Origin: Gaiellales bacterium
GTDB taxonomy: Bacteria; Actinomycetota; Thermoleophilia; Gaiellales; JAICJC01
Direction: 5' to 3'
Assembly (NCBI GenBank): GCA_038230835.1
Contig: JBBRMM010000003.1
Coordinates: 79,904-143,903 of the forward strand
Length of the DNA: 64,000 nucleotides
A model generated the notes under the pieces. That model was not told the origin of the DNA, ran no database searches, and worked only from the letters and a program-made list of their open reading frames with translations. Positions within the stretch are counted from its first letter, which is position 1; every line of letters starts with the position of its first letter. Shown here in pieces: positions 1 through 29,916 of this stretch. Made by a program: the position numbers and the translations under genes.

Positions 1-2
1 TG

Positions 3-719
3 CTTCGGATCTCCTACCACGGCCGCTCGGTCATCGCGGAGAAGCTCGATGTTGGCCGAGGTGGGCCGGCCCATCCGAAGATCGATCTCTGGTGGCAGAC
101 CGCAGCCCTCCTGGGCTTCAACGGGATTGGCGACGTTCGCATCACCGCCGCGCCCCCCGGAGCACAGCCGACCCCCATCCCTGGAGCACACTCGACCGGG
201 GATTCCATAGACACTCAGGCATGCGCGGGGTTCGTGGACGACGGCTCAGCCGGATCGCGTGCTGTTGCCGCCGCGCTTCGGTGGCTGGGAACCCCATACT
301 CGTGGGGCGGCGGCGACGCGAACGGTCCCACTCTTGGCACCTGCGGTCCGGCGGGGTGCCAGGGAGTTCGCGTCCGCGGGTTCGACTGCTCCGGGCTGAC
401 GCTGTATGCCTGGGCGCAGGCGGGTGTGTCTCTGTCGCATTTCACCGGTGACCAGTGGAACGAGGGCCTACGCCTCGCACCGTCGATCTCCGATGTTGAC
501 CAGCTGAGGCCGGGCGACCTGGTCTTCTTCAACATGGACGGACCGCTGGGTCACGTTGGCCTGTACGTCGGGGACGGAAAGATGGTCGAGGCTCCACACA
601 CCGGCGACGTCGTGAAGGTCGTCAACTTCACTGCCGGTGCCTACGCAGCGGCGTACGCCGGGGCGGTCCGACCGATGCCGCGATCGAGCCCGCTCGCGTC
701 GGCTGGGTCAGCGAGATGA
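3..719 (+). CDS. NlpC/P60 family cell-wall peptidase, 5' end outside the window
   Basis: The frame is open from the window edge. It carries the motifs GTPYSWGGG, GFDCSGL (catalytic Cys) and GHVGLYVGDGKMVEAPHTG (His). Its stop overlaps the next start (ATGA at 716). This type of hydrolase is typical of actinobacterial conjugation loci. Confidence 0.85.
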   Translation, partial: LRISYHGRSVIAEKLDVGRGGPAHPKIDLWWQTAALLGFNGIGDVRITAAPPGAQPTPIPGAHSTGDSIDTQACAGFVDDGSAGSRAVAAALRWLGTPYSWGGGDANGPTLGTCGPAGCQGVRVRGFDCSGLTLYAWAQAGVSLSHFTGDQWNEGLRLAPSISDVDQLRPGDLVFFNMDGPLGHVGLYVGDGKMVEAPHTGDVVKVVNFTAGAYAAAYAGAVRPMPRSSPLASAGSAR

Positions 720-2404
720 GCGCCAAGGCTCCGCGGTTCCCTCCACCGCGGTCGCAGGCGCATCCGCTCGAGGTTCTGGCAATTGGCGCGGTTGTCGTCG
801 TGGTCGCCATCGCCGCGGAGCTGTGGCTCACCGGGGAGCTCGCCGGGCGGCTCTTCGGTGGCGCATGGCCTCGAACGCCTCTCGGGGAAATGGCCCGTGT
901 GCTCGGCCGCTTCCGCGACCACGTGTCCGATCCGGCGAAGGCGTGGCCCCGTCCCGAGCGGCGGCTCATTCCTGCGGCAACAGCCTTCTACGCGACGGTC
1001 CTCACCACCCTAATACCGCTTGCCGGGGTGGGGCTTCTTGTCCTCCGGCACCGATCCCGATCGGCCCTCCCCAAGACTGGAGGCGCTCGCTGGGCGGGGA
1101 AGCGCGATCTGCGGCTCCTCCGAGTGGACGAACCACTTCCCGGTCGGCTGACGTTGGGGCACGTGGACGGCCATCTCGTGGCGGCGGAACCCCGCCAATC
1201 CGTGATCGTCGTTGGCCCAGTACAGACCGGGAAGACGTCCGGGTTCGCCGTCCCCGCGATCCTCGAATGGCAGGGGCCGGTCGTCGCCACGTCCGTCAAG
1301 ACGGATCTCCTTCGAGACACTCTTGCGGCGCGCTCGGCCATCTCGGGAGCCAGCGTGTGGGTGTACGACCCAACTGGAGGGACAGGAATTCCGTCGGCCG
1401 ACTGGACGCCGGTGGCCGGTTGCCACACCTGGCAGGGCGCGCAACGCACCGCGTCGTGGCTCGTCAATGCCGCGCGGCGAGGAACCGCGGGCATGGAGAA
1501 CGCCCAGTTCTGGTACGCAGCTTCGGAGAAGCTCTTGGCTCCGCTCTTGTTCGCCGCCGCGCACTCGGAGCAGACGATGGCGGACATCGTGCGCTGGGTC
1601 GACACCCAGGAGGAGGAGCAGGTCAGATGGGGCCTCGAACTGGCTGGCGATCCGGCCGCGATGGCGGCGTTCACGGCATCTACTCTGCGGGACGAACGCA
1701 CCCGTTCCAGCATCTACACCACGGCCGAGACCTTGCTCACCGCGTTTGCCGACCCGGGCGTGCTCGCCTCGGCGCTCGACGCCGAGATCCAGGCCGACCG
1801 CCTGCTCGACGGCGCCTCGCACACGCTATACCTCTGCGCGCCCGCCCACGAGCAGCGGCGCCTTCAGCCGCTCTTCGCGACGGTGATTCAGGAGATCGTT
1901 GCGCGCGCCTACGAGCGGTCGACGGAGATCGGCGGCCCGATCGACCCGCCCCTGCTGCTGGTACTCGACGAGTGCGCCAACATCGCGCCGCTCCGCGAGC
2001 TCGCGACGCTCGCCTCAACCGGAGCCGGCCAGGGAATCCAACTCGTCTCCGTCTTCCAGGATATGGCCCAGATCAACGCGGTGTACGGCCGCGACCGGGC
2101 ACCGACGATCGTCTCCAACCACCGAGCCAAAGTGATCCTGTCAGGGATCGCGGACGCTCAAACCATCGACTACGTTGCCCGACTCCTCGGGGACCAGGAA
2201 GTGCCCCAGGTCTCATCTACCAGCGATGGCGAAGGTCGTCGCTCGAAGACCGAGTCGATCGGGTACCGGAGCCTTGCGCCGGCCAACGTACTCCGAGAGA
2301 TGCAGCCCGGCAGTGGGCTCCTGGTCTACGGGCACGTGGCGCCGGCACGGATCGCGCTTCGACCATGGTTTAAGGATCGAAGGCTGCGGCGCCTGGCCGG
2401 CTAG
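716..2404 (+). CDS. Type IV secretion coupling protein (VirD4/TraG-like T4CP)
   Basis: 562 aa with N-terminal hydrophobic helices, Walker A VVGPVQTGKTSG, Walker B-like LLLVLDECANIAP, and QLVSVFQDMAQINAVYG typical of the TraG/TraD family. Confidence 0.85.
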   Translation: MSAKAPRFPPPRSQAHPLEVLAIGAVVVVVAIAAELWLTGELAGRLFGGAWPRTPLGEMARVLGRFRDHVSDPAKAWPRPERRLIPAATAFYATVLTTLIPLAGVGLLVLRHRSRSALPKTGGARWAGKRDLRLLRVDEPLPGRLTLGHVDGHLVAAEPRQSVIVVGPVQTGKTSGFAVPAILEWQGPVVATSVKTDLLRDTLAARSAISGASVWVYDPTGGTGIPSADWTPVAGCHTWQGAQRTASWLVNAARRGTAGMENAQFWYAASEKLLAPLLFAAAHSEQTMADIVRWVDTQEEEQVRWGLELAGDPAAMAAFTASTLRDERTRSSIYTTAETLLTAFADPGVLASALDAEIQADRLLDGASHTLYLCAPAHEQRRLQPLFATVIQEIVARAYERSTEIGGPIDPPLLLVLDECANIAPLRELATLASTGAGQGIQLVSVFQDMAQINAVYGRDRAPTIVSNHRAKVILSGIADAQTIDYVARLLGDQEVPQVSSTSDGEGRRSKTESIGYRSLAPANVLREMQPGSGLLVYGHVAPARIALRPWFKDRRLRRLAG

Positions 2405-5114
2405 ATGTAGATGCGAGGGTGGGCCTACCGACGACGCCGGCTGCGGATGCGCGTATCCCGGAGACGGCACGCGCGACGGCGGCGGGCAGTGTTAGATGTC
2501 CTTTCGGGACAAACGCATACGGAACCAATGTGATCCGTTCGCGCGTCCGCTCGCGAACGAGGACTCTAAGCTCCGTTCGGATCTCGTCGTGGATATCGAC
2601 GCCAACCGAGGCTCCCATCTCTAGCGACGCGACTATCGCGTATCGCACCGGCATTGCGAGGCGGCCGGCGTCCACGCGACAATCGACGTTGATCTCTAGC
2701 GCGTCGCCACGAGTGAAGCCGACGGCCGCCCTGCCTTCGAGCACGTGGTGCTGAACTGTCCCCTTTGCGAGCGCATGGCGGTCGGCCTCAATCGGGTTGA
2801 CGCCGACCTCCGCTCGCGGTGGTGTCACAGAAAGCCGTGCCATTCTGTACTTTTGGGACCGAGGGTTCACGGGCGTTAGCCACGCGAGAGTCACGGTAAG
2901 ACGACGCCATTCCGCTTTTGCTGCAAGCGACGGCGGCAATGGGAAGACGTGTGTGTGACGAACGTCCTTCGATATCGAGGCCGCTCCGATGACGACAGCG
3001 CGTATTGGACTGGCCGATGCCACGCGATCGATATGTACACGGCCGTAGCCCAGGATCTGCGTCAGCTTCCGTCGGGCCTGGACCGGATCGAGGTTGAGCA
3101 GCGCTCTGAATGACGGCTGAAGCTCGCCCCATCGCGCCGCGTGAACGAGGAGCGCTTTCGCGAGAACCGGGTGATACTGGGGATCCGGGAATTCGAAGGC
3201 GCCATCGTCCGGCTCAAGGGTTTCCAACTCTTCGAGGATATGGCCCAGCGCTCGGGTCGCCAGCGCTGCGGCGTTGCTTGTCCCACACGAGAATGAGGTG
3301 GAGTTGAGGCTGCCCGCCATCCCTGGCGAAGCCGTGCGAAGCCCAGGCCCTACGGCTGGTGCGATAGCAGGGTCGTAGGCAATCTCCGGTTCGCCAGTCT
3401 GAGGGGGATTGATGAAAAACTCTCGGCCGCCCGGGAGTAGCACCTCCGGCTTCACCGATCGGCGGTATCCAAAGCCGACCGGACTATAGGCCGCAACCAA
3501 TCCATCAGGAATTAGATCGATCACGCCGTCGCTCGACGGCGGGTCGGCCCGATCCTCGTGCAGCGCTCCGACTGTGATGGCATTGACAGCTTCGGCAGGC
3601 GAGAGCAAACGCCGTGTTCGCGCCTGGTCGAACATCGAGACGGCGGCGGCCCGGCGCACAGCGTCGATGTCCCCCAACACACCCGCCGCAATGACGGGTC
3701 TCGCCGATGTGTTTCCTCCGCTGACGACAACAATTACGTTGTAATGGTGGCTGAGCCAGTCAACGAGCCTCGCGAGAGGGCTCATTCGGCGGACGAACTG
3801 CCGGCCAGGATCACCTATCGAAAGATTGAAAACCCGCACGCTCGGTGCGACTGCGGCTGCCCCGCCCTCGAACACACGTCGAAACGCTCTATGCACCACG
3901 TCAACCAAAGATTCGTCCGTGGGCACGGTTTCGTGGTCCGTGAAGAACGTATGAGGCTCCAGGATCGGGTAGACGTAGATCGGGTGCGCCAGGGGAGTGC
4001 CTGGATCCGAGAGATCTCCATGAATGATTAGGGATGCCATCGCCGTGCCGTGACTCTGCTGGCTTGGCGCATATTTCGAACCGCGGTCGTCAGGATCGTC
4101 AATGAGAACACGACCGCGAAGGGCATCGTGGTTTTCGAGCGGCAGACCGTCCAGCAGGGCGATCCGCGGCAACCCGGTGGAAGGACTATCCACGACAGGG
4201 ACCGCCGCGAGCTTGACTGGTTCCAGTACGGGAATAGCCATCGGCCGATGCGCACTGACGAACATGACCGACTCGGCCTGCAAGAGCTCAATCGCATCTG
4301 TGCCACGCCGGAGAACCTGTTCAACCGTGTTGTAAGGGATATCCGCGAGCACGCTATGGAAGGCGATCTCGGCAAAGGATGAGCTGCTGACGAAGGTACC
4401 GCTGGCGTCGCTGATGATCTTCACGACGTCTTGCTCTGCGGCGCGCCGACGAGCCTCGTCATCCCGGTACCAAAGTTCGATCTCGACTCGCGCGTACCCC
4501 CGCGCGCCGATCATCTCGACGTCCTCCTGCCAAGCTTCAAGGAGGCCTGTTTCGCGAACGCGATCCTCGGGACCCCACTTTCGTACGGACCGAAGGAGCC
4601 CAAAAACATTCTTCAGGGGATTCAAGCCCCTTTCGAATGTGATGGATTGATCGTCCTGCCACAAACCGAAGAGGCGCACCAGCTCCGTGACTGCTCGGGC
4701 GTCCGACATAACCATGTACAAGGAACAAGGGACGCCATCGTCTGCAATCTCACCGGTGGCTTCGTAGTAGAAATCGTCATCGGGATCGACGTAGTCCTCT
4801 TGGCTTTCCACGAGAAACTCTAGGCCCGGCACTTTCGCTGCAGCTCGCATGAAGCCCTCTTCGTTCCCTGCGAGATCGAATACGGCGACGAGTTCGGGAT
4901 CGCTCGTTACTGCCGACGCGACCAGCTCAGCCCGTTGCTCACTGAGGGCATCCTGGAGCGATCCAAACTGCGGTGTGAGGCGCGCCCCCTGTGCGCGCGC
5001 CCCTGGACGCTTCAGCGGACGAAAGGAGGTACGCGCTGCTGGTATCGCCCCAGCCGCTGGCGTCCCGAGCGCGAGGATCTCCCGCCGTTCCGCTAACCCG
5101 CTTGGAGTCGCCAT
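2370..5114 (-). CDS. ietS: S8 subtilisin-like serine peptidase, IetS-like, with an uncharacterised N-terminal region of about 330 aa
   Basis: 914 aa. The S8 triad context is visible: IALLDGLP (Asp), SHGTAMASLIIHGD (His), SCGTSNAAALATRA (Ser). The start overlaps the stop of the upstream AAA ATPase by 22 nt. The IetS assignment is inferred from the gene pair architecture. Confidence 0.75.
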   Translation of the reverse strand: MATPSGLAERREILALGTPAAGAIPAARTSFRPLKRPGARAQGARLTPQFGSLQDALSEQRAELVASAVTSDPELVAVFDLAGNEEGFMRAAAKVPGLEFLVESQEDYVDPDDDFYYEATGEIADDGVPCSLYMVMSDARAVTELVRLFGLWQDDQSITFERGLNPLKNVFGLLRSVRKWGPEDRVRETGLLEAWQEDVEMIGARGYARVEIELWYRDDEARRRAAEQDVVKIISDASGTFVSSSSFAEIAFHSVLADIPYNTVEQVLRRGTDAIELLQAESVMFVSAHRPMAIPVLEPVKLAAVPVVDSPSTGLPRIALLDGLPLENHDALRGRVLIDDPDDRGSKYAPSQQSHGTAMASLIIHGDLSDPGTPLAHPIYVYPILEPHTFFTDHETVPTDESLVDVVHRAFRRVFEGGAAAVAPSVRVFNLSIGDPGRQFVRRMSPLARLVDWLSHHYNVIVVVSGGNTSARPVIAAGVLGDIDAVRRAAAVSMFDQARTRRLLSPAEAVNAITVGALHEDRADPPSSDGVIDLIPDGLVAAYSPVGFGYRRSVKPEVLLPGGREFFINPPQTGEPEIAYDPAIAPAVGPGLRTASPGMAGSLNSTSFSCGTSNAAALATRALGHILEELETLEPDDGAFEFPDPQYHPVLAKALLVHAARWGELQPSFRALLNLDPVQARRKLTQILGYGRVHIDRVASASPIRAVVIGAASISKDVRHTHVFPLPPSLAAKAEWRRLTVTLAWLTPVNPRSQKYRMARLSVTPPRAEVGVNPIEADRHALAKGTVQHHVLEGRAAVGFTRGDALEINVDCRVDAGRLAMPVRYAIVASLEMGASVGVDIHDEIRTELRVLVRERTRERITLVPYAFVPKGHLTLPAAVARAVSGIRASAAGVVGRPTLASTSSRPGAAAFDP

Positions 5115-6049
5115 TGCTCAATGCAGCCGCGGACGATCGCTTTCAGATCGCCTTCTGGAAGTGCAAGAACGTAACGTCGCCGGACATCGAGGGCGAACTG
5201 TTCCAGTTCTGAGTAGCTTGCCCCCCGTAGGCGATCGGCGAGGGTTCTTGGTGTAAGTCCCAAAGCTCCAAGCCGAGAAGTCAGGATCTCCAGAAACCGA
5301 GTTGCCTCCACCCGCGTCGGAGGCTTCAGCGTGAGTCGAATCTGAAACCGCCGCCAGGCGGCTCGATCAAGGAGCTCCGCGTGATTCGTTGCGCAAACGA
5401 CGATCACGTGTGCTGGCAACCGATCGATCTGCAACAACAGCGTAGAGACCACACGCTTTATCTCACCCGTCTCGTGTACATCCGATCGTTCCTTGGCCAG
5501 TGTGTCAAACTCGTCAAAGAACAGGACACAGCGACGGGTCCTCGCGAACTCGAAAGCTTGATCCAACCGGGCAGTCGTCTCCCCTAAGAAGCTCGAGACG
5601 ACGCCCTCGTATCGCACCACATAAAACGGCAGCATGGTCTCCGTAGCGATGGCCTCGGCGAGGCTCGTCTTACCGTTTCCCGGAGGACCTTCAAGGAGCA
5701 CGCGGTTTCTCGGCACAAGATTGTGGCTGCGGAGCAGTTCGATCCGGTGGTGCTCCTCGATGAGTTCGGCGGCGGCGGTGGCCACGGCCGGCGCGAGCTG
5801 GAGCGTACTGAGGCGGCGCGTAGGGACAATCTCGTGGACCAGGTCCGTCACACGAGATGCAGCGCCATCGCGTTCCAACATCCCGGCAGAACCGACGGTC
5901 GTGATTAGCTCGGAGAGCCTGTCGGCGACGAGATGGTGTTGTTTAGCCCGCTCCTCGGCGATGATCGCCTCTACGAGCACGCGAAATCGGTCTCTGTCGT
6001 TGCGTCGTTCGGCTTCGACGAGGTCAACGAGAAGATCAGAACGTGCCAT
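5093..6049 (-). CDS. ietA: AAA+ ATPase, IetA-like
   Basis: 318 aa with Walker A LLEGPPGNGKTSLA, Walker B VLFFDEFD, sensor VVCATNH and an arginine-finger region RAAWRRF. It lies directly upstream of the S8 peptidase and is translationally coupled to it. Confidence 0.8.
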   Translation of the reverse strand: MARSDLLVDLVEAERRNDRDRFRVLVEAIIAEERAKQHHLVADRLSELITTVGSAGMLERDGAASRVTDLVHEIVPTRRLSTLQLAPAVATAAAELIEEHHRIELLRSHNLVPRNRVLLEGPPGNGKTSLAEAIATETMLPFYVVRYEGVVSSFLGETTARLDQAFEFARTRRCVLFFDEFDTLAKERSDVHETGEIKRVVSTLLLQIDRLPAHVIVVCATNHAELLDRAAWRRFQIRLTLKPPTRVEATRFLEILTSRLGALGLTPRTLADRLRGASYSELEQFALDVRRRYVLALPEGDLKAIVRGCIEQWRLQAG

Positions 6050-9254: not shown

Positions 9255-9273
9255 GAGTGTGACTATAGCGCAT

Positions 9274-9295
9274 CTCGACCCATTTATGGGTCGAG
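9274..9295. promoter_or_regulatory. Perfect 9-bp inverted repeat (CTCGACCCA-TTTA-TGGGTCGAG) directly upstream of the relaxase gene; candidate oriT hairpin
   Basis: Read directly from the sequence. The repeat is flanked by GACTATAGCGCA on one side and TGCATCTGTGTCTCAC on the other. These recall the hairpin-plus-TGTCT/ATAG layout of MobF oriT nic regions as I remember it for R388. Confidence 0.4.
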
Positions 9296-9350
9296 TGCAT
9301 CTGTGTCTCACTACCTACCGAGGGTAGTAGATAAGGCGGACGGTTGCTGT

Positions 9351-10958: not shown

Positions 10959-11998
10959 GAGAGCGTTCCTCCTTCGGTTAGGAGCACGAGCGCGCGATCC
11001 TTCAGCGCGGCCGGCTCGGTGGCGCGCTCGAAGCGCGCTTCGCGGTGGCTGCGGCTCGCTGTCTCGCGTGTCGGCTGTGTGTGGTCGACGTAGGCGGCCA
11101 CTCCCTGCAATGCGCCCCAGCGCGTACCAGTGATATTCGCGAGATCGGGGGTTGCCGTGTAGGCGGTCGCGATCGCCTCGCGGACGCGCTCGGCGTTACG
11201 GACGGCGCGGCCGCCGCTGGTCGGATCGTGGCGCGGCTCGGGCATGGGAACGAGGGCGGCGAGGAAGCGCTCGAATTCGGCGCCGCTGATCGGCTCGCGG
11301 AGCAGGCGTCCGCCGATCTGCTCCAGCTCGTCGTAGTAGCGCCAGGCGATCCCGAGCGTGCGGCGGGCGTCGATGAGCCGTGCGTCGAGGTTGGCGGTGT
11401 GGCGGGCCTTCCACACGCGGGCGGCGCCATCGAGCGGGAGCATCATCCCGTTGAGGCACGCGAGCCGGAATGGGGCGACGCTGATCGTCACGGCGAGGCC
11501 GCCGTCGTGGCCGTTGCGGAAGCAGAGCAGCGGCAGTACGTCTTCCCCCTCCGCGTCCCCGATGCGGATCTCGCGGTCGAGTTGCATCAGCGCGTGCACG
11601 CGGGCGCCGCCGCGCGTCTCACCCGCGCCGAGCCAGTGCGCCTCGCCGCTGTCGGTGATCGCGTCGCAGAACGCGAACGCGGCCCGGTTCTGCAGCGGCT
11701 CGTAGCCCTTGCCGACGACACCAAGTACCGTCCCTGTGTCGCTGCGCAGGTTTGCGACGACGCGCGGCACCGGCACGCGGCGCGGCCCGTCGTCGTCGTG
11801 GTCGCCGAGCACTGCTTCGAGCGGATATTGCTCGACAGTCCAAGCAAGGTCGGCGGCATCAATCATCGCCGCTGCCGAGCACCCCTCCTCGGGGCGCAGG
11901 GCTCGCACAACTTCGCCCCATCCGGACGGCCGCCCGCCGAACCAGAGCGGTGATCGGGCGTCCTTGATGCGGTAGCTCGGTGTCTCCATTGTCGTCAT
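10955..11998 (-). CDS. DUF932 (phage/plasmid-like TIGR03299 type) protein
   Basis: 347 aa. Sequence character and its fixed position next to a ParB-like gene fit the DUF932 family common in ICEs and plasmids. The call is from memory of the family, not a search. Confidence 0.65.
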   Translation of the reverse strand: MTTMETPSYRIKDARSPLWFGGRPSGWGEVVRALRPEEGCSAAAMIDAADLAWTVEQYPLEAVLGDHDDDGPRRVPVPRVVANLRSDTGTVLGVVGKGYEPLQNRAAFAFCDAITDSGEAHWLGAGETRGGARVHALMQLDREIRIGDAEGEDVLPLLCFRNGHDGGLAVTISVAPFRLACLNGMMLPLDGAARVWKARHTANLDARLIDARRTLGIAWRYYDELEQIGGRLLREPISGAEFERFLAALVPMPEPRHDPTSGGRAVRNAERVREAIATAYTATPDLANITGTRWGALQGVAAYVDHTQPTRETASRSHREARFERATEPAALKDRALVLLTEGGTLS

Positions 11999-21200: not shown

Positions 21201-21970
21201 TGGACGAGGCATCGGAACTGCGCTCAGAAGTGCTCGAACTGTTCGCCGGAGACAAGGTGGATCCGGCGGCCGTCTCCGTTACAAAGAGCAAGGCCGAGCA
21301 GCTGAAAGCCCGCTACCGCGAAGAGGCGGAGCACGCACATCAGCGTGACCGTCTTGACTCCAACGGCGAGAAGCACAAGAAGGCGATTCTCGAGGGCGGC
21401 ACCTTCAAGGACCTCGCGGCGCTCGCCAGTCTCGAGCTGTTGCCGTCGGGGACATTCGGCGTGATGCAGCAGCATCTCGCGGGGATCGGCACGTGCCTCG
21501 AGTTCACGTCTGATTCACTCGCCGAGACCGTCCGCTGCCCCCACTGCGGCTATCTTCCGCGGCCGTCAACCGGCCCGACCGCAAAAGCCCAAGTCGAAGA
21601 GCTTGACGAGGAGCTGCGCAAGCTGCGCTCGAACTGGTCCGCCGCCCTGCACGACAGCATCAAGCCGCCTGAGATCGCACAGGGCATCGAGCTCGTGAAG
21701 TCCGGGCGTGCCGAGCTTGAAGCCTTCGCCTCGAGCGGCGAGCTGCCCTCACCAGTGCCGAAGCCGCTCGTGACCGGGCTCCAGGAGGTGCTGCGCGGAT
21801 TCACGGTCCGGAACGTCTCCGCAGAAGACGTGTACTCGGCGCTCTTCCCGGACAACAGCCCAGTGCCCTTGTCGTCCTTTGAGGAACGCTTCCACGCGTT
21901 CGCCTCGAAGCTTCGAGGCGATGTGGACCCAAGCAAGATCCGCGTGCTCCCAGCCGCTCCGGAGCAGTAG
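18287..21970 (+). CDS. brxC: BREX ATPase BrxC/PglY
   Basis: 1227 aa with P-loop VVANYGTGKTHLMA, Walker B LLFVLDELLDYL, a long helical C-terminal part and a CPHCGY zinc-ribbon-like motif. Confidence 0.85.
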   Translation: MAELKYDELIAFEPIDSVKVLTEADSEDLARRDVSTFVISPQMRRMLVEQLLPHLRLDGSVDTKGVLVVANYGTGKTHLMATISAVLEHAELAAELRDEDVRKAIDDVAGSFQVMRAEIGATKMGLRDIVCGELESGLKRLGVDFTFPPLEEVSNTKDSLVDMMAAFEKVEPDRGLLFVLDELLDYLRSRRDAELIVDLAFLREIGEISRTTRFRFIAGIQEALFDNPRFASASDAIRRVRDRFEQVRISREDVAYVVQERLLRKEAAQKALIREHLERFTPAFDGMSERLEEFVALYPVHPSYLRTFERVTLVEKRRVLSTLSHAMAELLKSDVPTEAPGLICYDAYRSELDNDPSNRSIPDVALVLDRTHVLRSKLESALPQKEDVPAALRIVDALAVHRLTTEDIDVPIGLTVDELRDDLCLIPEGVPELDAGFIGTTLESVVAEIVKAVSGQFLSRNDDNGQLFLDVRKDIDYDQLIQERADSLDDQRLDDAYFRALEEVLEQRDTPYVASYRIWSYELPWKAKNVTRLGYLFMGAPNERSTAQPPRDFYIYFLQPYEEPAFADQELADETFVRLEAPDDDFTAALRRYAGADALTASSTEQHRLVYEQKRQQALQTMVVWLRQNMANAMTVTYRGEAKPLGTWLQQIPGAKTSVKAQIDAIAARALEPHFDERYPGYPAFSAEITKQSFDGTVQAAISQIATRRATALGTKVLTSLGLADMNGQIVADGEFAKALLTALEKSGDKAVNRSELLTERDPGVLTWAPWHLEPSWLVVVAAALCHAGRLELGYPAGQVDAVGLDRLTKMSREELVQLTHVAPPKALPIVALRDAAALLDIAPGAVPDSGATEPVVQQILDKTQTYLNRVLDAEQQVSDGVLVWGAHAIDHQQDRRLRLADLRKVLEDLKGRDSVGKMNKLAIGPAELEAAHRGKQELERTEGIVRARNHLSALQYVTDAQAAFDQVDPFLDEASELRSEVLELFAGDKVDPAAVSVTKSKAEQLKARYREEAEHAHQRDRLDSNGEKHKKAILEGGTFKDLAALASLELLPSGTFGVMQQHLAGIGTCLEFTSDSLAETVRCPHCGYLPRPSTGPTAKAQVEELDEELRKLRSNWSAALHDSIKPPEIAQGIELVKSGRAELEAFASSGELPSPVPKPLVTGLQEVLRGFTVRNVSAEDVYSALFPDNSPVPLSSFEERFHAFASKLRGDVDPSKIRVLPAAPEQ

Positions 21971-21972
21971 CC

Positions 21973-24570
21973 GTGACCGAGCGCCTCGACCTCGGTGACG
22001 AGCGCGTCGCCGCACCCGATCTCTCCGACGATCTGCGCGCGCGTCTTCCTCAACTACGTGATGTTCCCGGGTGCCCGAGTGGCACCGACGACGCGATCAT
22101 CGAGATGTCTGCGCCGCCGGCCCACACCGCGTGCCCGAATCCATACCTGCGCGAGTGGGTCGAGCAGCACCAGAGTACGGACGTCGACAGGCCTGATCCA
22201 GGCCCCTTTGCGGCCGACAGCCAGGCGGGGAAGACGTCGCTCGTCTACAAGGCGCACGGTTACCCGACGAAGGTGCCGCACGAGGCCATCATGCGCCTCA
22301 TCCTCCACTACACGAAGCCCGGTGACATTGTGCTGGACGGCTTTTGCGGTACGGGGATGACAGGCGTGGCAGCGCAGATGTGCGGTCGCGCCGACGTCGA
22401 TCTGCGGACGACGATCGAACTCGAAATGGGCAACGTGCAGTGGGGAATCCGCCGCGCCGTGCTTCAGGACCTCGGCCCAAGCGCCACCTTCATTGCCGCT
22501 GGTTTGAACGTCCCGGTCGATGTCGACGCCTTCGACCGCGCATCGAAAGACATGCTTGACCGGTTCGATGATGACTACGGATGGATGTACGAGACGAAGC
22601 TCGAGGACGGAAGGACGGCGCGGATTGATTACACCGTTTGGTCGGAGGTGATGACGTGCCCCCACTGCGGCTCTCGCATCGTATTCTTCGAGGCGGCGTT
22701 CAACCACGACTCTGGCGGTGTGCGTGAGGAGTTCAACTGCACGTCGTGTGGTGCCGAGGTTAAGAAGGCATCGCTAGAACGGAGATTCGCAACGATCCGG
22801 ACGCTCGCGGGCGACACGATTGAGCGCGTCGAGTACGAGCCCGTTGAAATCCATTGGCGAAGTGGTCGCGATAAGGGTAGCAAGTCCTTCGATCAGGCGG
22901 ATCGGGATGTGCTCGACCGAGTCGCAGCTGCAGCCGTCGTCGGATTTCCGGCGACGGCGCTTCCCATTGAGACGATGGGGCACGGTTCGCGGCTTGCGCC
23001 AAAGGGGTTCACTCGCATAGACCACCTCTGGGGCGATCGCGCCCTGACCGCCCTAACGGCTCTCTGGCGCTTGGCAGGAACATCTCAGGTCGTGGCGACT
23101 CGGCGTGTATTGCGCTTTTGGGTTGAGCAGGGTTGTTGGGGTTTGTCATGGATGAATCGATACAGCGCTACCCACTTCTCCCAGGTCAACCGTAACCTCA
23201 ATGGCGTCTACTACGTTGGGTCGCTTCACGCGGAGCCAAGCCCTCGCTACAACCTCGAAGGCTCGCGTCCGTCAACGGGAAAGCGCTCGTCGCTCGTCAA
23301 ACTCTGGACGTCCCTTAGGAACAGCGGCGATCACGTTCGGATCTCAACTGGGTCGTCGACGGTGCTTGACATCCCGGACAGCTCGATCGATTACGTCTTC
23401 GTTGACCCGCCGTTCGGGGCGAACATCCCGTACGCCGACCTCGCGTTGGTGATCGAGAATTGGCATGGAGTGCTGACGTCAACGGGCGAAGAAGCAGTCA
23501 CTCACGAACAGCAGGGCAAAGGTCTCTTCGAGTACAGCGCGCTGATCGAGGCTTGCTTCCGCGAGTTCCATCGCGTGCTGAAGCCTGGACGTTGGATGAC
23601 GGTGGAGTTCTCGAACTCGTCGAACGCGGTGTGGAGTGCGATTCAGCAGGCGCTTGCGTCGGCGGGATTTGTGGTGGCCGACACACGCGTGCTCGACAAG
23701 GAACAGCATTCGTTCCGGCAGGTAACTGCGAAAAACGCTGTTAAGCGCGATCTGATCATCTCCGCGTACAAACCTCACGCGGATGTGGCCGAGCGCGTCC
23801 GACTCTCCGGCGGTAGCGAGGACAGCGTATGGGCATTCGTTCGCGAACATCTCTCTCACTTGCCGCTGCGCGATCTCCTTGAAGGGGTTCCGCGGATCGT
23901 GCGCGAGCGACAGGCTGACCGCTTGTACGACCGGATGGTGGCGTTCCACGTCGCGCAGGGGATCGTCGTGCCAATGACGGTGGCGGAGCTCTACGCGGGG
24001 CTTGACCAACGTCTACCGCTCCGCGACGGGATGTACTTCCTTCCGGCCCAGGCGGAGGAGTACGAGAAGCTGCGAGCGGCTGGAATGGACCCCGAACAGG
24101 CCGAGCTCTTCATTACTGGCGAGAGTTCTGCAGTGGCTTGGCTGCGTCAGTTCCTCCGAGGCAACGCTCTCGCCTTCGCTGGCATCCAGCCGGCGTTCTT
24201 CCAGGAGGTCCAGAAGGGCACTGCCGGCTGGGACGAGTTGCCGGACCTCAAGGAGCTTCTGGACCAGAATTTCGTGACCGACACCGAGGGGCGATACGTC
24301 GTTCCCGACCCGAAGAAGGCGGAGCATCTGGAACAGCTTCGCGAGGCGGACCTGCTCCGGGTCTTTGATGGGTACGTCGTTGGTACGGGGCCGCTTGAGC
24401 AGTTCCGTTCAGAGGCCGTCAAGGCCGGCTTCAAGCGGGCTTACCGCGACCGGGACTTCGAGACGATTATCAAGGTCGGCCAGCGCATCCCAATGGAGGC
24501 TTTCAACGACGACACCGCATTGATGCATTACTTCCGTAACGCTGAACGGCTCCACCGCGGCGCGCGGTGA
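21973..24570 (+). CDS. pglXI: BREX type 3 DNA methyltransferase PglXI
   Basis: 865 aa with SAM-binding motif DIVLDGFCGTGMTG, catalytic motif YVFVDPPFGANIPY and an internal CPHCG...CTSCG zinc ribbon. Confidence 0.85.
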   Translation: MTERLDLGDERVAAPDLSDDLRARLPQLRDVPGCPSGTDDAIIEMSAPPAHTACPNPYLREWVEQHQSTDVDRPDPGPFAADSQAGKTSLVYKAHGYPTKVPHEAIMRLILHYTKPGDIVLDGFCGTGMTGVAAQMCGRADVDLRTTIELEMGNVQWGIRRAVLQDLGPSATFIAAGLNVPVDVDAFDRASKDMLDRFDDDYGWMYETKLEDGRTARIDYTVWSEVMTCPHCGSRIVFFEAAFNHDSGGVREEFNCTSCGAEVKKASLERRFATIRTLAGDTIERVEYEPVEIHWRSGRDKGSKSFDQADRDVLDRVAAAAVVGFPATALPIETMGHGSRLAPKGFTRIDHLWGDRALTALTALWRLAGTSQVVATRRVLRFWVEQGCWGLSWMNRYSATHFSQVNRNLNGVYYVGSLHAEPSPRYNLEGSRPSTGKRSSLVKLWTSLRNSGDHVRISTGSSTVLDIPDSSIDYVFVDPPFGANIPYADLALVIENWHGVLTSTGEEAVTHEQQGKGLFEYSALIEACFREFHRVLKPGRWMTVEFSNSSNAVWSAIQQALASAGFVVADTRVLDKEQHSFRQVTAKNAVKRDLIISAYKPHADVAERVRLSGGSEDSVWAFVREHLSHLPLRDLLEGVPRIVRERQADRLYDRMVAFHVAQGIVVPMTVAELYAGLDQRLPLRDGMYFLPAQAEEYEKLRAAGMDPEQAELFITGESSAVAWLRQFLRGNALAFAGIQPAFFQEVQKGTAGWDELPDLKELLDQNFVTDTEGRYVVPDPKKAEHLEQLREADLLRVFDGYVVGTGPLEQFRSEAVKAGFKRAYRDRDFETIIKVGQRIPMEAFNDDTALMHYFRNAERLHRGAR

Positions 24571-26993
24571 CCTCGGACGAGCACGTCTGGTGGCCTGCCG
24601 GGCGCCGCTCGTTGCGTGTTCTGACGCGCACAGAGCTGTGGGGTCAACGCTTGATCGACGCGATCGACGTCGCAAGCGGCTCGTTGATCCGACTCGACGA
24701 AGTCGACGTGACACCCCTCGCCGGCCGCCGCTGGGAACGAGACGAGGTGATCTGGAGAGCGTCTGCGTGCCGCGCGATTGCAGCTGCGGCCGCGGGGGCT
24801 GCGGTTGCGGCGGCGTCTTCCGGCGTCGAGCTGTTACCTCACCAGGCTGCGACCCTGACCAGGGCACTCAAGCTAGATCCGGTCCGACTAGCGCTGTGCG
24901 ACGAGGTTGGGCTGGGCAAGACGATCACCGCAGCAGCCATCTATACCGAGCTCAAGGCGCGAGGACGTGCCTCGCGGGTGCTGGTTGTCGCGCCGAAGAG
25001 CGTGCAGCTTCAGTGGGTGGCGGAGTTCGCCGACCGGTTTGAAGAGGAGTTTGTCCGCGTTGGCCCGGAAGGAATGCCGGTCGATGCCGGCGTCGATCCC
25101 TGGCGCGCGTTTCCGCAGGTCGTGTGCTCCCTGGACGCGGTAAAGCCGATCCGCGCGAGAGCGGGTTGGAGCCTGGAGCAGGTCGATGCGTACAACCAGC
25201 GTCGGGTAGAGGCAATCGTCGCGGCGGGCTGGGATCTCGTGATCTTCGACGAGGCGCACCACGTGGCGGGCTCGAGCGACGAGGTAGCGCGCCACCGCCT
25301 CGCCCGCGAACTGTCGGCGACGGTCCGGAACATCCTTCTGCTGTCGGCGACGCCGCACTCCGGGAAGTCCGACGGATTTCGGCGCTTCGTCGGCCTGCTC
25401 GATGAGCAGTTTTTCGGCGGTGCTCCACTCACGCGGGACAGGGTCCAGGAGCTTGTCGCTCGCACGGAGAAGCGTACGGCGATCGACAGAGCTGGTCGTC
25501 CGCTGTTCATGCCGCGTACCACAACCATGGAGGTCGTTCGGTACGGCGATCGGACGGTCGAGCGTGACCTCTACGACGCCGTAACCGAATACGTACGTGA
25601 GGGGTATGGGCGTGCCCTCCGAGAGAAGCGTCCGGCGGTCGGCTTCCTCGTGCTCCTCATGCAGCGTCTCGTCTCGTCGAGCACCGCGGCGATCCTCGCG
25701 GCGCTTGAGAAGCGAGCCGCGGCGCTTGAGGCGGCGCCTGAGCAACTCGAGCTGGGCGCATTCACCGGGGACTGGGAAGAACTGACCGGCGAAGAACAGT
25801 TCGAGCGGATGGCCGAGATGCGCGGGCACGGGTGGGTGAACGAGCGCCTTCAAGTCCAAGAGCTGCTGCAGCGCGCTCGACGTGCCGCGTCGAGCGGTCT
25901 CGATGCGAAGGTGAGTCATCTCTTCGATCTGCTTGGCCAACTTGAGACGAGCGAGAGCGACCCCGACGTGAAGGTGCTTCTCTTTACGGAGTTCCTGCCC
26001 ACGCAGGAGATGCTCTTGAATGCGCTGGCGGGCGCAGGCATCTCTGCCGTCGCGATCAACGGTGGGAACTCGCTTGCCGAACGAGCACTCGCGCAGGACG
26101 CGTTTCGGGAGCGCTCCCGCGTGCTCGTCTCGACAGATGCCGGCGGCGAGGGGATCAACCTGCAGTTCGCCCACGTCGTCGTCAACTGGGATCTGCCGTG
26201 GACGCCCACGAAGATCGAGCAGCGCATTGGTCGCGTTGATCGGATTGGGCAGCCACTCCCAGTGAAGGCCTACAACCTAGTTCGTGAGAACTCGATCGAC
26301 CTTCGTGTACTCGAGGTGCTTGAGCGCAAGTTGGCGACGATCCTCGTCGAGCTCGGAAGTGACAAGCGGGGCGACGTCCTCGAGAGCCTAAGCACACGGA
26401 CAGAGCGCTTGTACGTTGATGCGATCCTCGAGCCCGATGCTCTTGAGCGCTCCGCGGACGACGTGACGGCCGCGGCGCGCGACGAGGTGGTCTCGCAAGC
26501 CCCGACGCTCGAACTGATAGCGCCGCAGGCAATCAAGCAAGTCGTGCGGTCTGACGCGGACATCCGCGACTCCGTGCGTCGTGCGTCGGAGGCACGAGCG
26601 CGGATGCTCGGCAGCGATGTGCTTCGAGGCGCGCTGGATGCGTTGCGCGAGTTGCCCGAGGTGGCACCGGGAGAGCCTGTTCCTCTGCTTCCCGATTCAG
26701 GGGCGTCCGGATGGTGGGGCTGTTTCGAGGTGGCCGACAATGAGCACCGCCGAACGTGCTTCGCCGTCTTCAGTCCCGACGGAGGCGGGCTTGTCCGCCC
26801 GGACATCGCTGACCGCTGCTGGAGCGCGCTCGCCATCGAGGGCGCGGGCGAGACTTCGGGACCACCTGAGCCGGTGGAGTTCGACGAGCTCCTTGGTCTC
26901 GGTCGCGACCACGGCTATCGCGCCTGGGAGACGCTCGGATCGGCGAGTGTCCCGGTGCTCACGCTGCGGCTTCTCGTCCGGGTAACTTCGTGA
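24567..26993 (+). CDS. brxHII: BREX type 3 SNF2/DEAH-family helicase BrxHII
   Basis: 808 aa with LCDEVGLGKTITAAA, VIFDEAHHVAG, LLSATPHSG, VSTDAGGEGINLQ and EQRIGRVDRIGQ. Start and stop overlap by GTGA on both sides. Confidence 0.85.
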   Translation: MTSDEHVWWPAGRRSLRVLTRTELWGQRLIDAIDVASGSLIRLDEVDVTPLAGRRWERDEVIWRASACRAIAAAAAGAAVAAASSGVELLPHQAATLTRALKLDPVRLALCDEVGLGKTITAAAIYTELKARGRASRVLVVAPKSVQLQWVAEFADRFEEEFVRVGPEGMPVDAGVDPWRAFPQVVCSLDAVKPIRARAGWSLEQVDAYNQRRVEAIVAAGWDLVIFDEAHHVAGSSDEVARHRLARELSATVRNILLLSATPHSGKSDGFRRFVGLLDEQFFGGAPLTRDRVQELVARTEKRTAIDRAGRPLFMPRTTTMEVVRYGDRTVERDLYDAVTEYVREGYGRALREKRPAVGFLVLLMQRLVSSSTAAILAALEKRAAALEAAPEQLELGAFTGDWEELTGEEQFERMAEMRGHGWVNERLQVQELLQRARRAASSGLDAKVSHLFDLLGQLETSESDPDVKVLLFTEFLPTQEMLLNALAGAGISAVAINGGNSLAERALAQDAFRERSRVLVSTDAGGEGINLQFAHVVVNWDLPWTPTKIEQRIGRVDRIGQPLPVKAYNLVRENSIDLRVLEVLERKLATILVELGSDKRGDVLESLSTRTERLYVDAILEPDALERSADDVTAAARDEVVSQAPTLELIAPQAIKQVVRSDADIRDSVRRASEARARMLGSDVLRGALDALRELPEVAPGEPVPLLPDSGASGWWGCFEVADNEHRRTCFAVFSPDGGGLVRPDIADRCWSALAIEGAGETSGPPEPVEFDELLGLGRDHGYRAWETLGSASVPVLTLRLLVRVTS

Positions 26994-28777
26994 CCGGCTG
27001 GCTCGAAGCCCAAGTCTCCGAAGTGCGCCAGGCGACATCCACGCCGGTCGCTCTCGTTGTTGACCCTCATGAGCTTCTGCCGGCGGAGCGCCTCAGCGTG
27101 GTGGCAGAGACCGTCGCGGCAGCCGACTGGTGGTCGCTGCGACGGTCATGGGAAGCGGTTGGTCGTCACCGAACATGGGGTGACGGGCGCCTGATCTTGC
27201 ATGTCACCGGTGACGCGGGTAACCGAGAGCTCCCGTACGACATTGCACGATCGTCGACAACAGTAGTCATCGGCTGGCCAGTTCCGCCGCCCTGGCGTGC
27301 GTTGTTCAGCAGCCTCCTGACCGAGCCCGGAGCAGACATTCTGGTCGATGCCGCCCAGCGCGGACAAGCAACGCGCCTACTCCTCGAGAGGTTGTTCGGC
27401 GTTGGGTTTCCCGTGGGGTCGGAGAGTGGCGAGCTTGCCGCCATCGCTGCGTTGCGAGCTCGCGCGACTCTCTCCGACGCGGTGTGGGGACTCGTTCATG
27501 AGACAGTCACCATGCCACTGGCTCGCGACCTGGCGAGGCAGCCGCCCGAACGCTCAACCGCGACCGAGCGTTGGACGTCGTGGCTCTCGGGCGAGCACGA
27601 GGATCCAGTGCTGCGCGACGCGGGTCCCGCATTGCTCGGGCTCGTTACGGCTGGTGTGCTGCCGCGGGTGACGAACATGGCTCCGTCCGCACCTGGTTGG
27701 GCGCAGTTGGCAGCTGCCGACATCGACGTTGTAAGTCGTGCCACGGCGCTGCTCGGCGAGCCTCCCGTTTCGGGCATCCCTTCCGGGCTGTCGGACTGGA
27801 GCGCGGTGGCAGTGTGGATGGGGACGATCCGAGGGCTGCTGTCGCTTGATCCTGCCGCTCCGGAAACACTTCTAAGAGACGTCCATGAGCAAGCCGTCGA
27901 CCTGGACGACGTCTTCGCTCCGTGGCTGAGGGCGCAGTATGGGTCCCTGCTCCAGAGCGCCGCTATTCCGCCCGTGACTGTGCATAAAGTCGCGCCGTTC
28001 CTCGGCCGCCGCGTCGCCGACGGAGCGCGGGTGCTGCTCGTCGTCCTCGACGGCGTCGGCTTCGCGCAGTGGGAGATCCTCCTCGACAAGACCGGCATCA
28101 GTCCGCTCCAGCAGCACGCCTGCTTGTCCATGCTTCCCTCCGAGACGACCGTCTCGCGTCAAGCCCTGCTCGCCGGAACGACTCCCGATGACTTCGCATC
28201 GTCGTTTCACACAACCGCCAAGGAAAAGCAACATTGGCATGACTTCTGGAGTGGACACGGCGTCCCCAACGAAGAGGTGCGCTATTACCGCGTTGACGGC
28301 CGCCGAGAAGACATCGTCCCCCTCTCGTCCGCCTACCGGGCCGTCGCCGTGATCGTGTCCGCGATCGACATGCTCATGCACGGAAGCGAGCTGCTCGGTG
28401 ACGCCCAGCTCTCTGCGGGCGTGACTGCGTGGTGCCAGCAGGGCTACTTGACAGGCCTGCTGGCCCAGGCCGACGAGCACGGGTATGAAACGTGGCTGAC
28501 CGCCGACCACGGCAACGTCGTCGCGACCGCCGGCGGCGCGCCACCAGAGGGTCTCAGGGTGGAGCGACAGGGAACAAGGCTCCGGCTCTACCGCTCCCTG
28601 GCAATGCGCGATGCTTCTGCGAACCTCGGGATCGCGTGGACACCCCCACGTCTGCCGCCCGACGTACACGTCCTCTTTGCTCCACGGCGCGAAGGGTTCC
28701 AGCGTCACGGACTGCGGGTCACCCACGGCGGGCTCAGCTTCGAGGAGGTCTTTGTGCCGCTTGCGAGGTTGACATGA
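26990..28777 (+). CDS. pglZ: PglZ alkaline-phosphatase-superfamily protein
   Basis: 595 aa with VLLVVLDGVGFAQWE, TTVSRQALLAG, SAIDMLMHG and LTADHGNV, characteristic of the PglZ domain. Confidence 0.85.
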   Translation: MTGWLEAQVSEVRQATSTPVALVVDPHELLPAERLSVVAETVAAADWWSLRRSWEAVGRHRTWGDGRLILHVTGDAGNRELPYDIARSSTTVVIGWPVPPPWRALFSSLLTEPGADILVDAAQRGQATRLLLERLFGVGFPVGSESGELAAIAALRARATLSDAVWGLVHETVTMPLARDLARQPPERSTATERWTSWLSGEHEDPVLRDAGPALLGLVTAGVLPRVTNMAPSAPGWAQLAAADIDVVSRATALLGEPPVSGIPSGLSDWSAVAVWMGTIRGLLSLDPAAPETLLRDVHEQAVDLDDVFAPWLRAQYGSLLQSAAIPPVTVHKVAPFLGRRVADGARVLLVVLDGVGFAQWEILLDKTGISPLQQHACLSMLPSETTVSRQALLAGTTPDDFASSFHTTAKEKQHWHDFWSGHGVPNEEVRYYRVDGRREDIVPLSSAYRAVAVIVSAIDMLMHGSELLGDAQLSAGVTAWCQQGYLTGLLAQADEHGYETWLTADHGNVVATAGGAPPEGLRVERQGTRLRLYRSLAMRDASANLGIAWTPPRLPPDVHVLFAPRREGFQRHGLRVTHGGLSFEEVFVPLARLT

Positions 28778-29478
28778 CCGGACGTGGCCCCGTTCTCGAC
28801 CGGCCGCTCGAGCCCGCCTGGCTTGACGCCGCGCTGCGGATCGCGCGCGAGACGGGAGACCTCGATGAGGTGCGGAGCCGCCTGCACGTCGCACTCGCCG
28901 ACGGCGGCCTCGGGACAGCGGCTCGCGTGAAGACGGTCACAGCGCTTATGCGGACATGGGCGAGCCCGCGCCAAGGGTCGGCGCCGGCGGTCTACTGGGC
29001 CAGGGATGCGCTTGCCAACGAGGAGGACCTTCGCGCAGTGCATCTCGGGGCGCTGCTCGCCGCATATCCATTCTTCGGTGACGTCTGCGCGACCGTCGGA
29101 CGTGTCCTAGCGCTGGAAGAGCAAGTGACGACCCCTGACGTCAGGGCGCGCATTCGCTCCTCGTGGGGTGATCGGCGCACTGTCCACAACGCCGTACAGC
29201 GGGCAATTAAGACCTTGCGCGCATTCGAGTTGCTGACCGGCGATCCGGGAAGCTCACTCAGCCACCGCGCTGAGCGCTTGGTCGTCTCGCCACGGGCCGG
29301 AAGGTGGATCACGCACATGCTCCTGCTTTCGCGTGGAGCCGAATCGATTGACGAACATGATCTGCGCTCCGCCCCGGAACTGTTCGGGCTGCGCCTACCC
29401 GAGCGGCTCGACAACGGATACGTCCTACTCGAGCGCCACCGCGAGGGCGGTGGACGTACGGTGCTAGCCGTAGTGTGA
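28774..29478 (+). CDS. brxA: BrxA (DUF1819-like), terminal gene of the type 3 BREX operon
   Basis: 234 aa starting at the ATG in an ATGA overlap with the pglZ stop. The call rests on size, position and coupling; the listed 328-aa ORF from 28492 would overlap pglZ. Confidence 0.6.
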   Translation: MTGRGPVLDRPLEPAWLDAALRIARETGDLDEVRSRLHVALADGGLGTAARVKTVTALMRTWASPRQGSAPAVYWARDALANEEDLRAVHLGALLAAYPFFGDVCATVGRVLALEEQVTTPDVRARIRSSWGDRRTVHNAVQRAIKTLRAFELLTGDPGSSLSHRAERLVVSPRAGRWITHMLLLSRGAESIDEHDLRSAPELFGLRLPERLDNGYVLLERHREGGGRTVLAVV

Positions 29479-29737: not shown

Positions 29738-29759
29738 GGGCAGCAAACGGGCAGCAAAC
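29738..29759. repeat. Tandem 11-bp direct repeat GGGCAGCAAAC x2
   Basis: Read directly from the sequence, in the non-coding stretch between brxA and the tRNA fragment. Confidence 0.6.
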
Positions 29760-29871
29760 GTCTGAACACGGCTTCGCTCGACATCGGGAGGCGACTCGCG
29801 AAAGACCCGAAACACCGCATGGGTAGAGCGACAACGAGTCCATCGTCGCCAACCGTCGTGAGTCTCGAAGT

Positions 29872-29916
29872 GGCCTGTCACGCCGGAGGTCGCGGGTTCG
29901 AGTCCCGTCGCTCCCG
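29872..29916 (+). other. 3' half of tRNA-Asp(GTC), not a complete gene; putative attR of the island
   Basis: GGCCTGTCACGCCGGAGGTCGCGGGTTCGAGTCCCGTCGCTCCCG contains an anticodon loop CTGTCAC, variable loop AGGTC, T-arm GCGGGTTCGAGTCCCGT and a 3' acceptor strand. The roughly 30 nt upstream have no matching 5' acceptor strand (GGGAGCG) and no D-arm. Confidence 0.7.

Follow-up and report, generated by a model that had tools for sequence, protein, structure and literature searches.

What fills the first 29,916 positions of a 64,000-nucleotide stretch of Gaiellales DNA (the window, positions 1-64,000), and does it belong to a mobile element that ends at a tRNA remnant? An initial annotation had read 1-29916 as the right arm of an integrated actinobacterial integrative and conjugative element (ICE) of the type IV secretion system (T4SS) type, carrying defence cargo. 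We called genes with the guidance of G+C at third codon positions (GC3), scanned the protein products against Pfam, PADLOC and NCBIfam, and searched for tRNAs with ARAGORN and with Rfam, the latter both at the gathering threshold and in truncated mode. Related loci and contigs are labelled with L-numbers (L003, L036 and so on). The genes named in the annotation were all found, at approximately the same positions. We consider it probable that 1-29916 represents the right two-thirds of an ICE of ~44 kb, lodged in the 3' half of a chromosomal tRNA-Asp(GTC) gene of an uncultured Gaiellales-like actinobacterium. This agrees with the core of the annotation, which is supported by a backbone collinear with that of relatives, an attachment (att) core at the right border and a related chromosome that lacks the island.

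The conjugation genes carry the assignment to an ICE (Table 1). The coupling protein (T4CP) scored 132.9 bits against PF02534 (cut-off 20.1), identifying it as VirD4-like, and was 81% identical to that of L003. The NlpC/P60 hydrolase that precedes it showed 84% identity to L003 and up to 94% to L019. The relaxase was of the MOBF/TrwC class used to recognise T4SS-type ICEs and was 63-84% identical to those of relatives. The order T4CP-MobF-ParB-DUF932-79aa-HTH (helix-turn-helix) was collinear in more than 15 loci. All nine backbone open reading frames (ORFs) of the window were intact and full length, with lengths equal to those of relatives. The 79-aa ORF had no family match in the Pfam and NCBIfam scans; it is annotated at the same length in relatives too. 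The last backbone gene had been described as encoding a Xis-like HTH protein. The ORF is indeed present and conserved, but its match to the excisionase-type model HTH_17 was weak (17.8 bits, cut-off 27) and NCBIfam gave none; the 67-aa protein is a possible excisionase or regulator. DNA homology to L033, L035, L050, L034 and L013 stopped at ~12577, ~30 nt upstream of the HTH start codon.

We then turned to the right border. Neither ARAGORN nor Rfam at the gathering threshold called a tRNA at 29872-29916. In truncated mode, Rfam aligned 29845-29916 with tRNA positions 9-71 (19.4 bits, E=0.034); scores at the border were 16-19 bits against a gathering score of 29, as for a fragment and not for a complete cloverleaf. 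Preserved in the fragment are the Asp anticodon (GUC) in a CUGUCAC loop, an intact T-arm and the acceptor strand of the 3' side; a valid D-arm and a valid 5' acceptor strand were lacking from the truncated-mode alignment. Positions 29872-29916 matched the 3'-terminal 45 nt of real tRNA-Asp(GTC) genes at 45/45 positions. The tRNA fragment that had been reported at 29916 was thereby confirmed.

An exact 42-mer search of IMG/VR returned four contigs. L135 and L136 contain an intact tRNA-Asp(GTC) with an identical 3' half, and in L133, L134 and L135 the identity of the att-type copies starts at (G)GCCTGTCAC, which is the left boundary of the window copy (29872). In L135, a second, direct copy of the core was found 9.7 kb downstream of the intact tRNA-Asp, with an integrase next to the tRNA. 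Because the window copy shares its left boundary with att copies of independent integrated elements, 29872-29916 is, on sequence grounds, a real attR-type core left by integration at the anticodon-loop sublocation of tRNA-Asp. The geometry of such sites (tRNA on the plus strand facing an integrase gene on the minus strand, with attR beyond) implies that intact tRNA and integrase both lie to the left. Only one att-type copy lies in the window, at 29872-29916; the second of the two flanking direct repeats would lie outside it. No further copy of the tRNA-Asp segment, even a degenerate one, was found in 1-29865, which argues against tandem accretion. The hairpin just beyond the border (Table 1) is plausibly the native terminator of tRNA-Asp.

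The element in L135 (L135:144-9927, IMGVR_UViG_3300047160_007881) is phage-like, spanning the 9.7 kb between the intact tRNA-Asp and the 45-nt direct repeat. Its products comprise an integrase, DUF3631, Prim-Pol, a terminase large subunit, a protease-capsid fusion and a portal; in size and gene content the element is like a phage satellite of high-GC Actinomycetota.

Logan contigs identical to the window (L001, L002, L115 and L116; 2-7 kb, from IetA and DUF1326 look-ups) were also recovered. Those from two runs (SRR24807096, SRR19962015) break inside the core at 29889/29890, as a second copy of the core in the sample would explain. Such contigs break inside T4CP (1969, 2460) and MobF (8826, 8934) as well, and the breaks indicate that the samples contain more than one related ICE, or more than one tRNA-Asp context. 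We had considered the breaks at 29889/29890 as proof of an attL copy in the same genome; because metagenome contigs also break in the conserved T4CP and MobF genes, they are suggestive only.

Right of 29956, the genes encode DUF1326, PpoB2, a major facilitator superfamily (MFS) transporter, an extracytoplasmic function (ECF) sigma factor, an ATP-dependent ligase, oxidoreductases, a large NAD-specific glutamate dehydrogenase (NAD-GDH) and PstSCAB, confirming the abrupt switch to housekeeping-type genes that had been noticed at the tRNA fragment. A relative with an 87% identical DUF1326 was found on 15 contigs, 8 of which (from 8 JGI samples) are among those listed. It keeps the MFS–78aa–PpoB2–DUF1326 synteny at 80% nucleotide identity, has a convergent Beta_elim_lyase gene 12 nt after DUF1326, and carries rpsF-ssb-rpsR-rplI-dnaB ~5 kb beyond the DUF1326 junction, which confirms the chromosomal location. 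In blastn comparisons with L118 and L119, homology between the window and this relative ended at 29958, the DUF1326 stop codon, and there was no island. Relatives thus do not carry the 30 kb at this place; its presence there, with no empty-site variants, would have spoken against the annotation. L117, a 1.66-Mb contig with an 86% identical DUF1326, was tried as an empty site and dropped, as its synteny was too diverged.

What lies to the left of base 1 was approached through relatives. The T4CP search gave 30 related loci in Gaiellales, Thermoleophilia, Solirubrobacterales and Acidimicrobiia metagenome-assembled genomes (MAGs), with up to 81% identity. A metagenome scan anchored on the VirB4-like ATPase confirmed at least 493 relatives, and the DUF932 protein had 341 homologs at E<1e-40. 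Judged by these homology counts, the family is a very abundant ICE family of soil Actinomycetota (Gaiellales, Thermoleophilia, Acidimicrobiia). A search of IMG/VR with T4CP, primase and DUF932 as anchors found no relatives of it.

Synteny and context look-ups gave the general layout of the family. The left end consists of a tyrosine integrase, a Toprim primase, an XRE protein and small ORFs. The T4SS block follows, with a ParA-like protein, DUF6112 (pilin-like), a 256-aa protein, a VirB6/TrbL-like protein, an SCO6880-family protein and a 415-aa VirB4-like ATPase. The right part runs T4CP, slot 1, MobF, ParB, DUF932, the 79-aa ORF, HTH and slot 2, the slots being positions of variable cargo. 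Two arrangements were seen. In L013, L004, L005 and L050 the T4SS block is collinear with T4CP; in L003, L019, L036 and L037 the block from the ParA-like to the VirB4-like gene is inverted relative to T4CP, and NlpC/P60 lies directly upstream of T4CP. The window is of the inverted type. Beyond the VirB4-like gene, L036 carries XRE, the Toprim primase and, at the far end, a tyrosine integrase (Phage_integrase 9e-20); L049 and L037 have the primase-XRE-p197 module as well. Pfam scans and tblastn found no integrase in 1-29916, and there was no recombinase in 12.6-29.9 kb. That the T4SS genes, VirB4 and the integrase should lie outside the window to the left, as the annotation had proposed, is borne out by that side of the relatives arranged like the window (L003, L019, L036). 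By analogy with these, the ~14 kb left of base 1 would hold inverted mating-pair genes of the cmd/SCO6880 type, XRE, a Toprim primase, a tyrosine integrase and the intact tRNA-Asp.

The VirB4-like ATPase of L013 matched AAA_10 at 29.6 bits (cut-off 27.5) as well as P-loop_TraG; in relatives a match to the C-terminal half of TraC was below the cut-off, and the gene is present in the L003, L019, L036 arrangement. The SCO6880-family protein (505-571 aa) is always directly followed by the 415-aa ATPase (L013:7228-9989; L003:1-2459), which matches only the C-terminal ATPase half of TraC/VirB4. The two may correspond to a VirB4 split in two genes, in analogy with cmdC/cmdB.

Direct repeats delimiting the element were sought in L013 and L126, where only chance-level short repeats were found. 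ARAGORN placed tRNAs inside T4SS/RHS coding regions of four loci (L010:7004-7080; L066:8495-8591; L075:7221-7317; L034:6052-6137), and these are probably false positives.

The initial annotation had described three stacked defence modules interleaved with the conjugation genes. The modules do sit among the conjugation genes, but not at random, because relatives carry defence cargo at the same two hotspots: slot 1, between T4CP and MobF, and slot 2, upstream of the HTH gene. In relatives the slots usually hold defence genes, among them Zac, Type I and III restriction-modification (R-M), TIR, prokaryotic Argonaute (pAgo), GmrSD-like proteins and PDC candidates. Two of the three modules were validated. 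In slot 1 of the window, IetA and IetS are adjacent and have near full-length PADLOC matches, as expected for IetAS. In slot 2, BREX type 3 is complete, with six PADLOC models matched in canonical order by co-oriented genes (17838-29478). The nuclease-helicase, the third and only putative module, resembles defence proteins only in its helicase core. Its Pfam domains are RNase_H_2 and AAA_11/12, and its closest PDB matches are the helicase domains of Upf1, IGHMBP2, Sen1 and Dna2. Membership in Mokosh, Hhe, ProA or PLuB was considered and rejected, as only the SF1 helicase core (~residues 730-1090) aligned; scores against NCBIfam defence-helicase models (34 vs 2000, 34 vs 1500 and 59 vs 999) were far below the cut-offs.

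G+C across the window ranged from 0.61 to 0.72, with 0.614 in IetAS, 0.644 in BREX and 0.70 in the backbone and chromosome. GC3 was 0.66 for IetAS (IetS 0.67) against ~0.85 in the backbone. An intact insertion sequence (IS) lies between the nuclease-helicase and BREX. With a DDE transposase, terminal inverted repeats of 25 nt (88% complementary) and, read directly on both sides, a 4-bp CTAA target duplication, it has all the features of an insertion sequence, and the insertion is intergenic. By its PF13701 transposase it is IS1380-like. Its position directly upstream of brxF could alter BREX expression.

The slot 1 of relatives ranges from 0.6-0.9 kb, effectively empty (L033, L035, L050), up to 6.5 kb. 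Its occupants include a GmrSD-like HEC-05 protein with an IS (L028), E1-E2/ThiF with a metallo-beta-lactamase-fold (MBL) protein and a patatin (L046), PDC-M30A (L048), a HATPase/restriction endonuclease (REase)-like gene (L004), DUF3644 (L126) and, in a single case, an MFS transporter (L007). Slot 2 holds ZacA/ZacC with a DEAD/MZB helicase (L033, L035), a Type I R-M and ThsB-TIR cluster (L126, L127), a short pAgo with a methylase (L129), a Type III-like R-M pair with an SbcCD-like pair (L132), an RHS toxin (L034) or a thiamine pyrophosphate (TPP) enzyme (L013). In 6 of the 7 distinct relatives sampled, defence or conflict genes were found exactly at slot 2, packed tightly against the backbone. 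The Zac cluster (L035:1-9391; L033:1-6221) consists of DUF6361 ZacA (1.5e-123), a 615-aa protein and ZacC (E=0); the helicase that precedes ZacA/ZacC in both loci is a 1794-aa DEAD/MZB/YjiV_N protein.

As to the distribution of the cargo, near-identical IetA, IetS and DUF932 were found together on one 66.9-kb ENA contig, and the cluster of BrxC proteins at 90% identity or more includes members from Gaiellaceae and Solirubrobacteraceae MAGs. These similarities point to a cargo and an ICE variant that have recently spread by horizontal transfer.

Table 1. Features of the window, from left to right, with the matches on which they were assigned.
Feature	Coordinates	Strand	Evidence and remarks
NlpC/P60 cell-wall hydrolase, C-terminal part	1..719	+	NLPC_P60 2e-22; open frame from base 3, start left of window
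VirD4-like type IV coupling protein (T4CP)	716..2404	+	T4SS-DNA_transf 2e-38, TraG-D_C, TrwB_AAD_bind
IetS, subtilase partner of IetAS	2370..5114	-	PADLOC IetS 3.6e-280; Peptidase_S8; slot 1
IetA, AAA ATPase of IetAS	5093..6049	-	PADLOC IetA 1.6e-141; AAA 5e-30; slot 1
MobF (TrwC-type) relaxase-helicase	6318..9311	-	TrwC 2.2e-78 (264 bits), AAA_30 1.6e-52
ParB-like protein	9351..10958	-	ParB_N 4.7e-23, HTH_ParB
DUF932 / TIGR03299 'phage/plasmid-like' protein	10955..11998	-	DUF932 8e-47; TIGR03299 179 bits
Conserved 79-aa backbone ORF	12016..12255	-	80-94% identical in L033, L034, L035, L050
67-aa HTH protein, last backbone gene	12350..12553	-	83-93% identical in relatives; weak HTH_17
End of conserved backbone DNA, boundary with slot 2	12554..12577	.	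GAGTTAA-containing motif upstream of HTH gene
Nuclease-helicase	12594..15914	-	TM0106-family RecB-like nuclease (TIGR03491, 258 bits) fused to SF1B Upf1/IGHMBP2-like helicase; slot 2
Intact IS	16051..17683	-	DDE_Tnp_1_4 transposase 16226-17563 (1e-55, 189 bits); terminal inverted repeats
BrxF (BREX type 3)	17838..18299	+	PADLOC BrxF 3.6e-8
BrxC/PglY	18287..21970	+	PADLOC BrxC E=0; DUF6079 E=0
PglXI methyltransferase	21973..24570	+	PADLOC PglXI 1.3e-273
BrxHII helicase	24567..26993	+	PADLOC BrxHI/BrxHII 4.2e-213; SNF2/Helicase_C
PglZ	26990..28777	+	PADLOC PglZ 6.4e-68; Pfam PglZ
BrxA	28774..29478	+	PADLOC BrxA 1.1e-26; ATG overlaps PglZ stop codon
attR-type core, 3' 45 nt of tRNA-Asp(GTC), anticodon stem-loop to 3' end	29872..29916	+	Truncated tRNA alignment; exact 42-mer match
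Terminator-like hairpin and T-run, in chromosomal flank	29926..29949	+	1 site found, 0.3 expected from shuffles
DUF1326 gene, first chromosomal gene	29956..30561	-	DUF1326 6e-53
ATP-dependent DNA ligase	34808-36142		DNA_ligase_A_M; chromosomal flank
N6/N4 DNA methyltransferase, solitary	51708-52550		N6_N4_Mtase 1.5e-45; chromosomal flank, no obvious restriction partner adjoining
Large NAD-specific glutamate dehydrogenase, 1602 aa	55216-60024		Chromosomal flank
pstSCAB	60036-63984		Chromosomal flank, ordinary housekeeping

Several observations weigh against an ICE that reaches from beyond base 1 to 29916. Homology between the backbone and its relatives ends in every case at 12577, as would also be expected if the element ended there. 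Use of this tRNA-Asp core was shown for phage-like elements unrelated to ours, not for ICEs, and the integrase of those elements is unrelated to that of L036. No tRNA or tRNA fragment was found beside the L036 integrase, and a DNA comparison of the L036 integrase junction with the window revealed nothing shared. L126 has an intact tRNA, not a fragment, at its HTH end, corresponding to the other orientation relative to the target; because of L036 and L126, integration modules must differ among family members. There is no tRNA-Asp at the DUF1326 junction of the closest chromosomal relative, so a simple attB was not demonstrated. Finally, this element's own integrase, VirB4-like gene and intact tRNA-Asp are inferred from relatives. 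Some of these observations, together with the G+C of BREX below that of the backbone and a BrxC cluster (90% identity or more) that extends to other lineages, possibly without the ICE, would suit a composite island. The ICE would then end at ~12577, 12.6-29.9 kb would be a defence island of its own, or what is left of a different element integrated at tRNA-Asp, to which the tRNA scar belongs, and the ICE would have inserted later next to it or into it. This is opposed by the lack of any internal att copy in 1-29865, by the absence of an integrase or recombinase from 12.6-29.9 kb and by the sampled relatives that carry defence or conflict genes at exactly this position against the backbone. It is also opposed by L126 and L127, in which the slot-2 cargo is separated from a chromosomal gene by an intact tRNA-Thr (Rfam 69.7 bits), whose 3' end faces cargo and backbone and has no second copy within the next 20 kb; because there is no internal tRNA repeat, cargo and backbone form one block bounded by the tRNA site. 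We consider an island of two separate origins unlikely.

An integrated ICE may also have lost its mobility long ago, its left arm, integrase or attL having been deleted or decayed. The left arm does lie outside the observed sequence, an IS has inserted, and the lack of tRNA-Asp at the relative's empty site hints at a local rearrangement. Nevertheless, the IS is intergenic, the backbone ORFs are all intact and full length compared with relatives, the att core still matches functional tRNA-Asp genes at every one of its 45 positions, and near-identical copies of backbone and IetAS occur on other contigs. An old, fixed remnant therefore seems quite improbable to us. Least probable by far is a conjugative plasmid or megaplasmid. 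Plasmids, too, typically carry MobF, T4CP, ParB and ParA-like genes, and an Iamia plasmid bears a distantly related T4SS, but the window has no replication initiator, the junction bears a tRNA att scar and is followed by an uninterrupted 34 kb of genes of chromosomal type (NAD-GDH, pstSCAB, ligase, sigma factor), and the orthologous flank in a relative is ~5 kb away from rpsF-ssb-rpsR-rplI-dnaB. We rejected this explanation because the flank is chromosomal.

If 1-29916 is the right part of an ICE integrated at tRNA-Asp, its life cycle might be as follows. The integrase, possibly aided by the HTH protein, would recombine attL and attR and excise a circle. MobF would nick an origin of transfer (oriT), and T4CP would hand the relaxase-bound single strand to the T4SS, which would cross the wall assisted by the NlpC/P60 hydrolase. 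Reinsertion of the element at tRNA-Asp in the recipient would again be the work of the integrase. IetAS and BREX-3 would act as cargo that protects the host, and hence the element, against phages and competing plasmids. Slot 2 could be expressed together with the transfer genes, since it lies immediately upstream of the HTH-DUF932-ParB-MobF operon, tightly packed and in the same orientation. It is possible, though we would not count on it, that the two slots are dedicated, rapidly exchanging defence hotspots, in which case the genes in them that lack annotation would be new systems against phages or plasmids. The nuclease-helicase of the window (12594-15914), L013 12528-14064 and L004 13.5-15 kb may be such candidate defence genes. 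If this is true, the family would serve as a source from which immunity genes of uncultured Actinomycetota can be discovered.

The locus offers a well-delimited example, and its relatives an abundant family, of T4SS-type ICEs from soil Actinomycetota that have been little studied and are mostly uncultured. Among these bacteria, IetAS, BREX-3, Zac, R-M, TIR and pAgo systems move in a conjugative backbone, at two fixed slots. This is useful for the annotation of MAGs, for mining the slots for defence genes and possibly for genetic tools in these lineages.

We finally compared the element with known systems. Of the two defence systems, BREX type 3, reportedly from Goldfarb et al. 2015, is present as a brxF-brxC/pglY-pglXI-brxHII-pglZ-brxA operon in canonical order with nothing notably different, and IetAS, which is said to come from Gao et al. 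2020, is an adjacent pair of AAA ATPase and S8 subtilase with full-length matches, in which we detected no difference.

T4SS-type ICEs of Actinobacteria have been defined by int, T4CP, AAA_10 and TrwC, and 17 were reported in 2011 (PMC3218068). The likeness to these elements (Ghinet et al. 2011, PMC3218068; Bordeleau et al. 2012, PMC3429521) consists in the T4CP, the MOBF relaxase and the tRNA att scar of the window and in the integrase and AAA_10 ATPase of its relatives. Whereas their known hosts are Actinomycetales or Frankia, those found here are uncultured Gaiellales, Thermoleophilia and Acidimicrobiia, and the fixed ParB-DUF932-79aa-HTH module and the two defined cargo slots are further differences. 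In the plasmid collection, no sequenced plasmid or ICE was closer than 38% in T4CP. As far as these searches show, the family appears to be undescribed.

The mating-pair genes of the family are homologs of cmdB, cmdC and cmdD and of SCO6878/6880/6881 in the Streptomyces cmdABCDEF / SCO6871-6884 cluster (PMC2782261). The SCO6880-family protein matched at 325 bits, accompanied by a weakly SCO6881-like protein and the VirB4-like ATPase. While the Streptomyces cluster is chromosomal and linked to differentiation (PMC2782261), here the genes are linked to a relaxase, T4CP and integrase, i.e. they stand in a conjugative context.

Defence systems are widespread on ICEs, ~43% of which carry them, and earlier reports place both ietAS and BREX on integrated elements of actinobacteria (Botelho 2023, PMC10201445). 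Current concepts are not changed by our findings, because ICEs with defence hotspots that integrate at tRNA genes are well established. SXT/R391 ICEs, for example, have defence hotspots. The family described here resembles them in combining a conserved conjugative backbone with a few fixed variable regions that hold swappable anti-phage systems, and differs from them in its backbone, in its phylum and in the positions of its slots, which lie between T4CP and MobF and upstream of the HTH gene, beside the att end.

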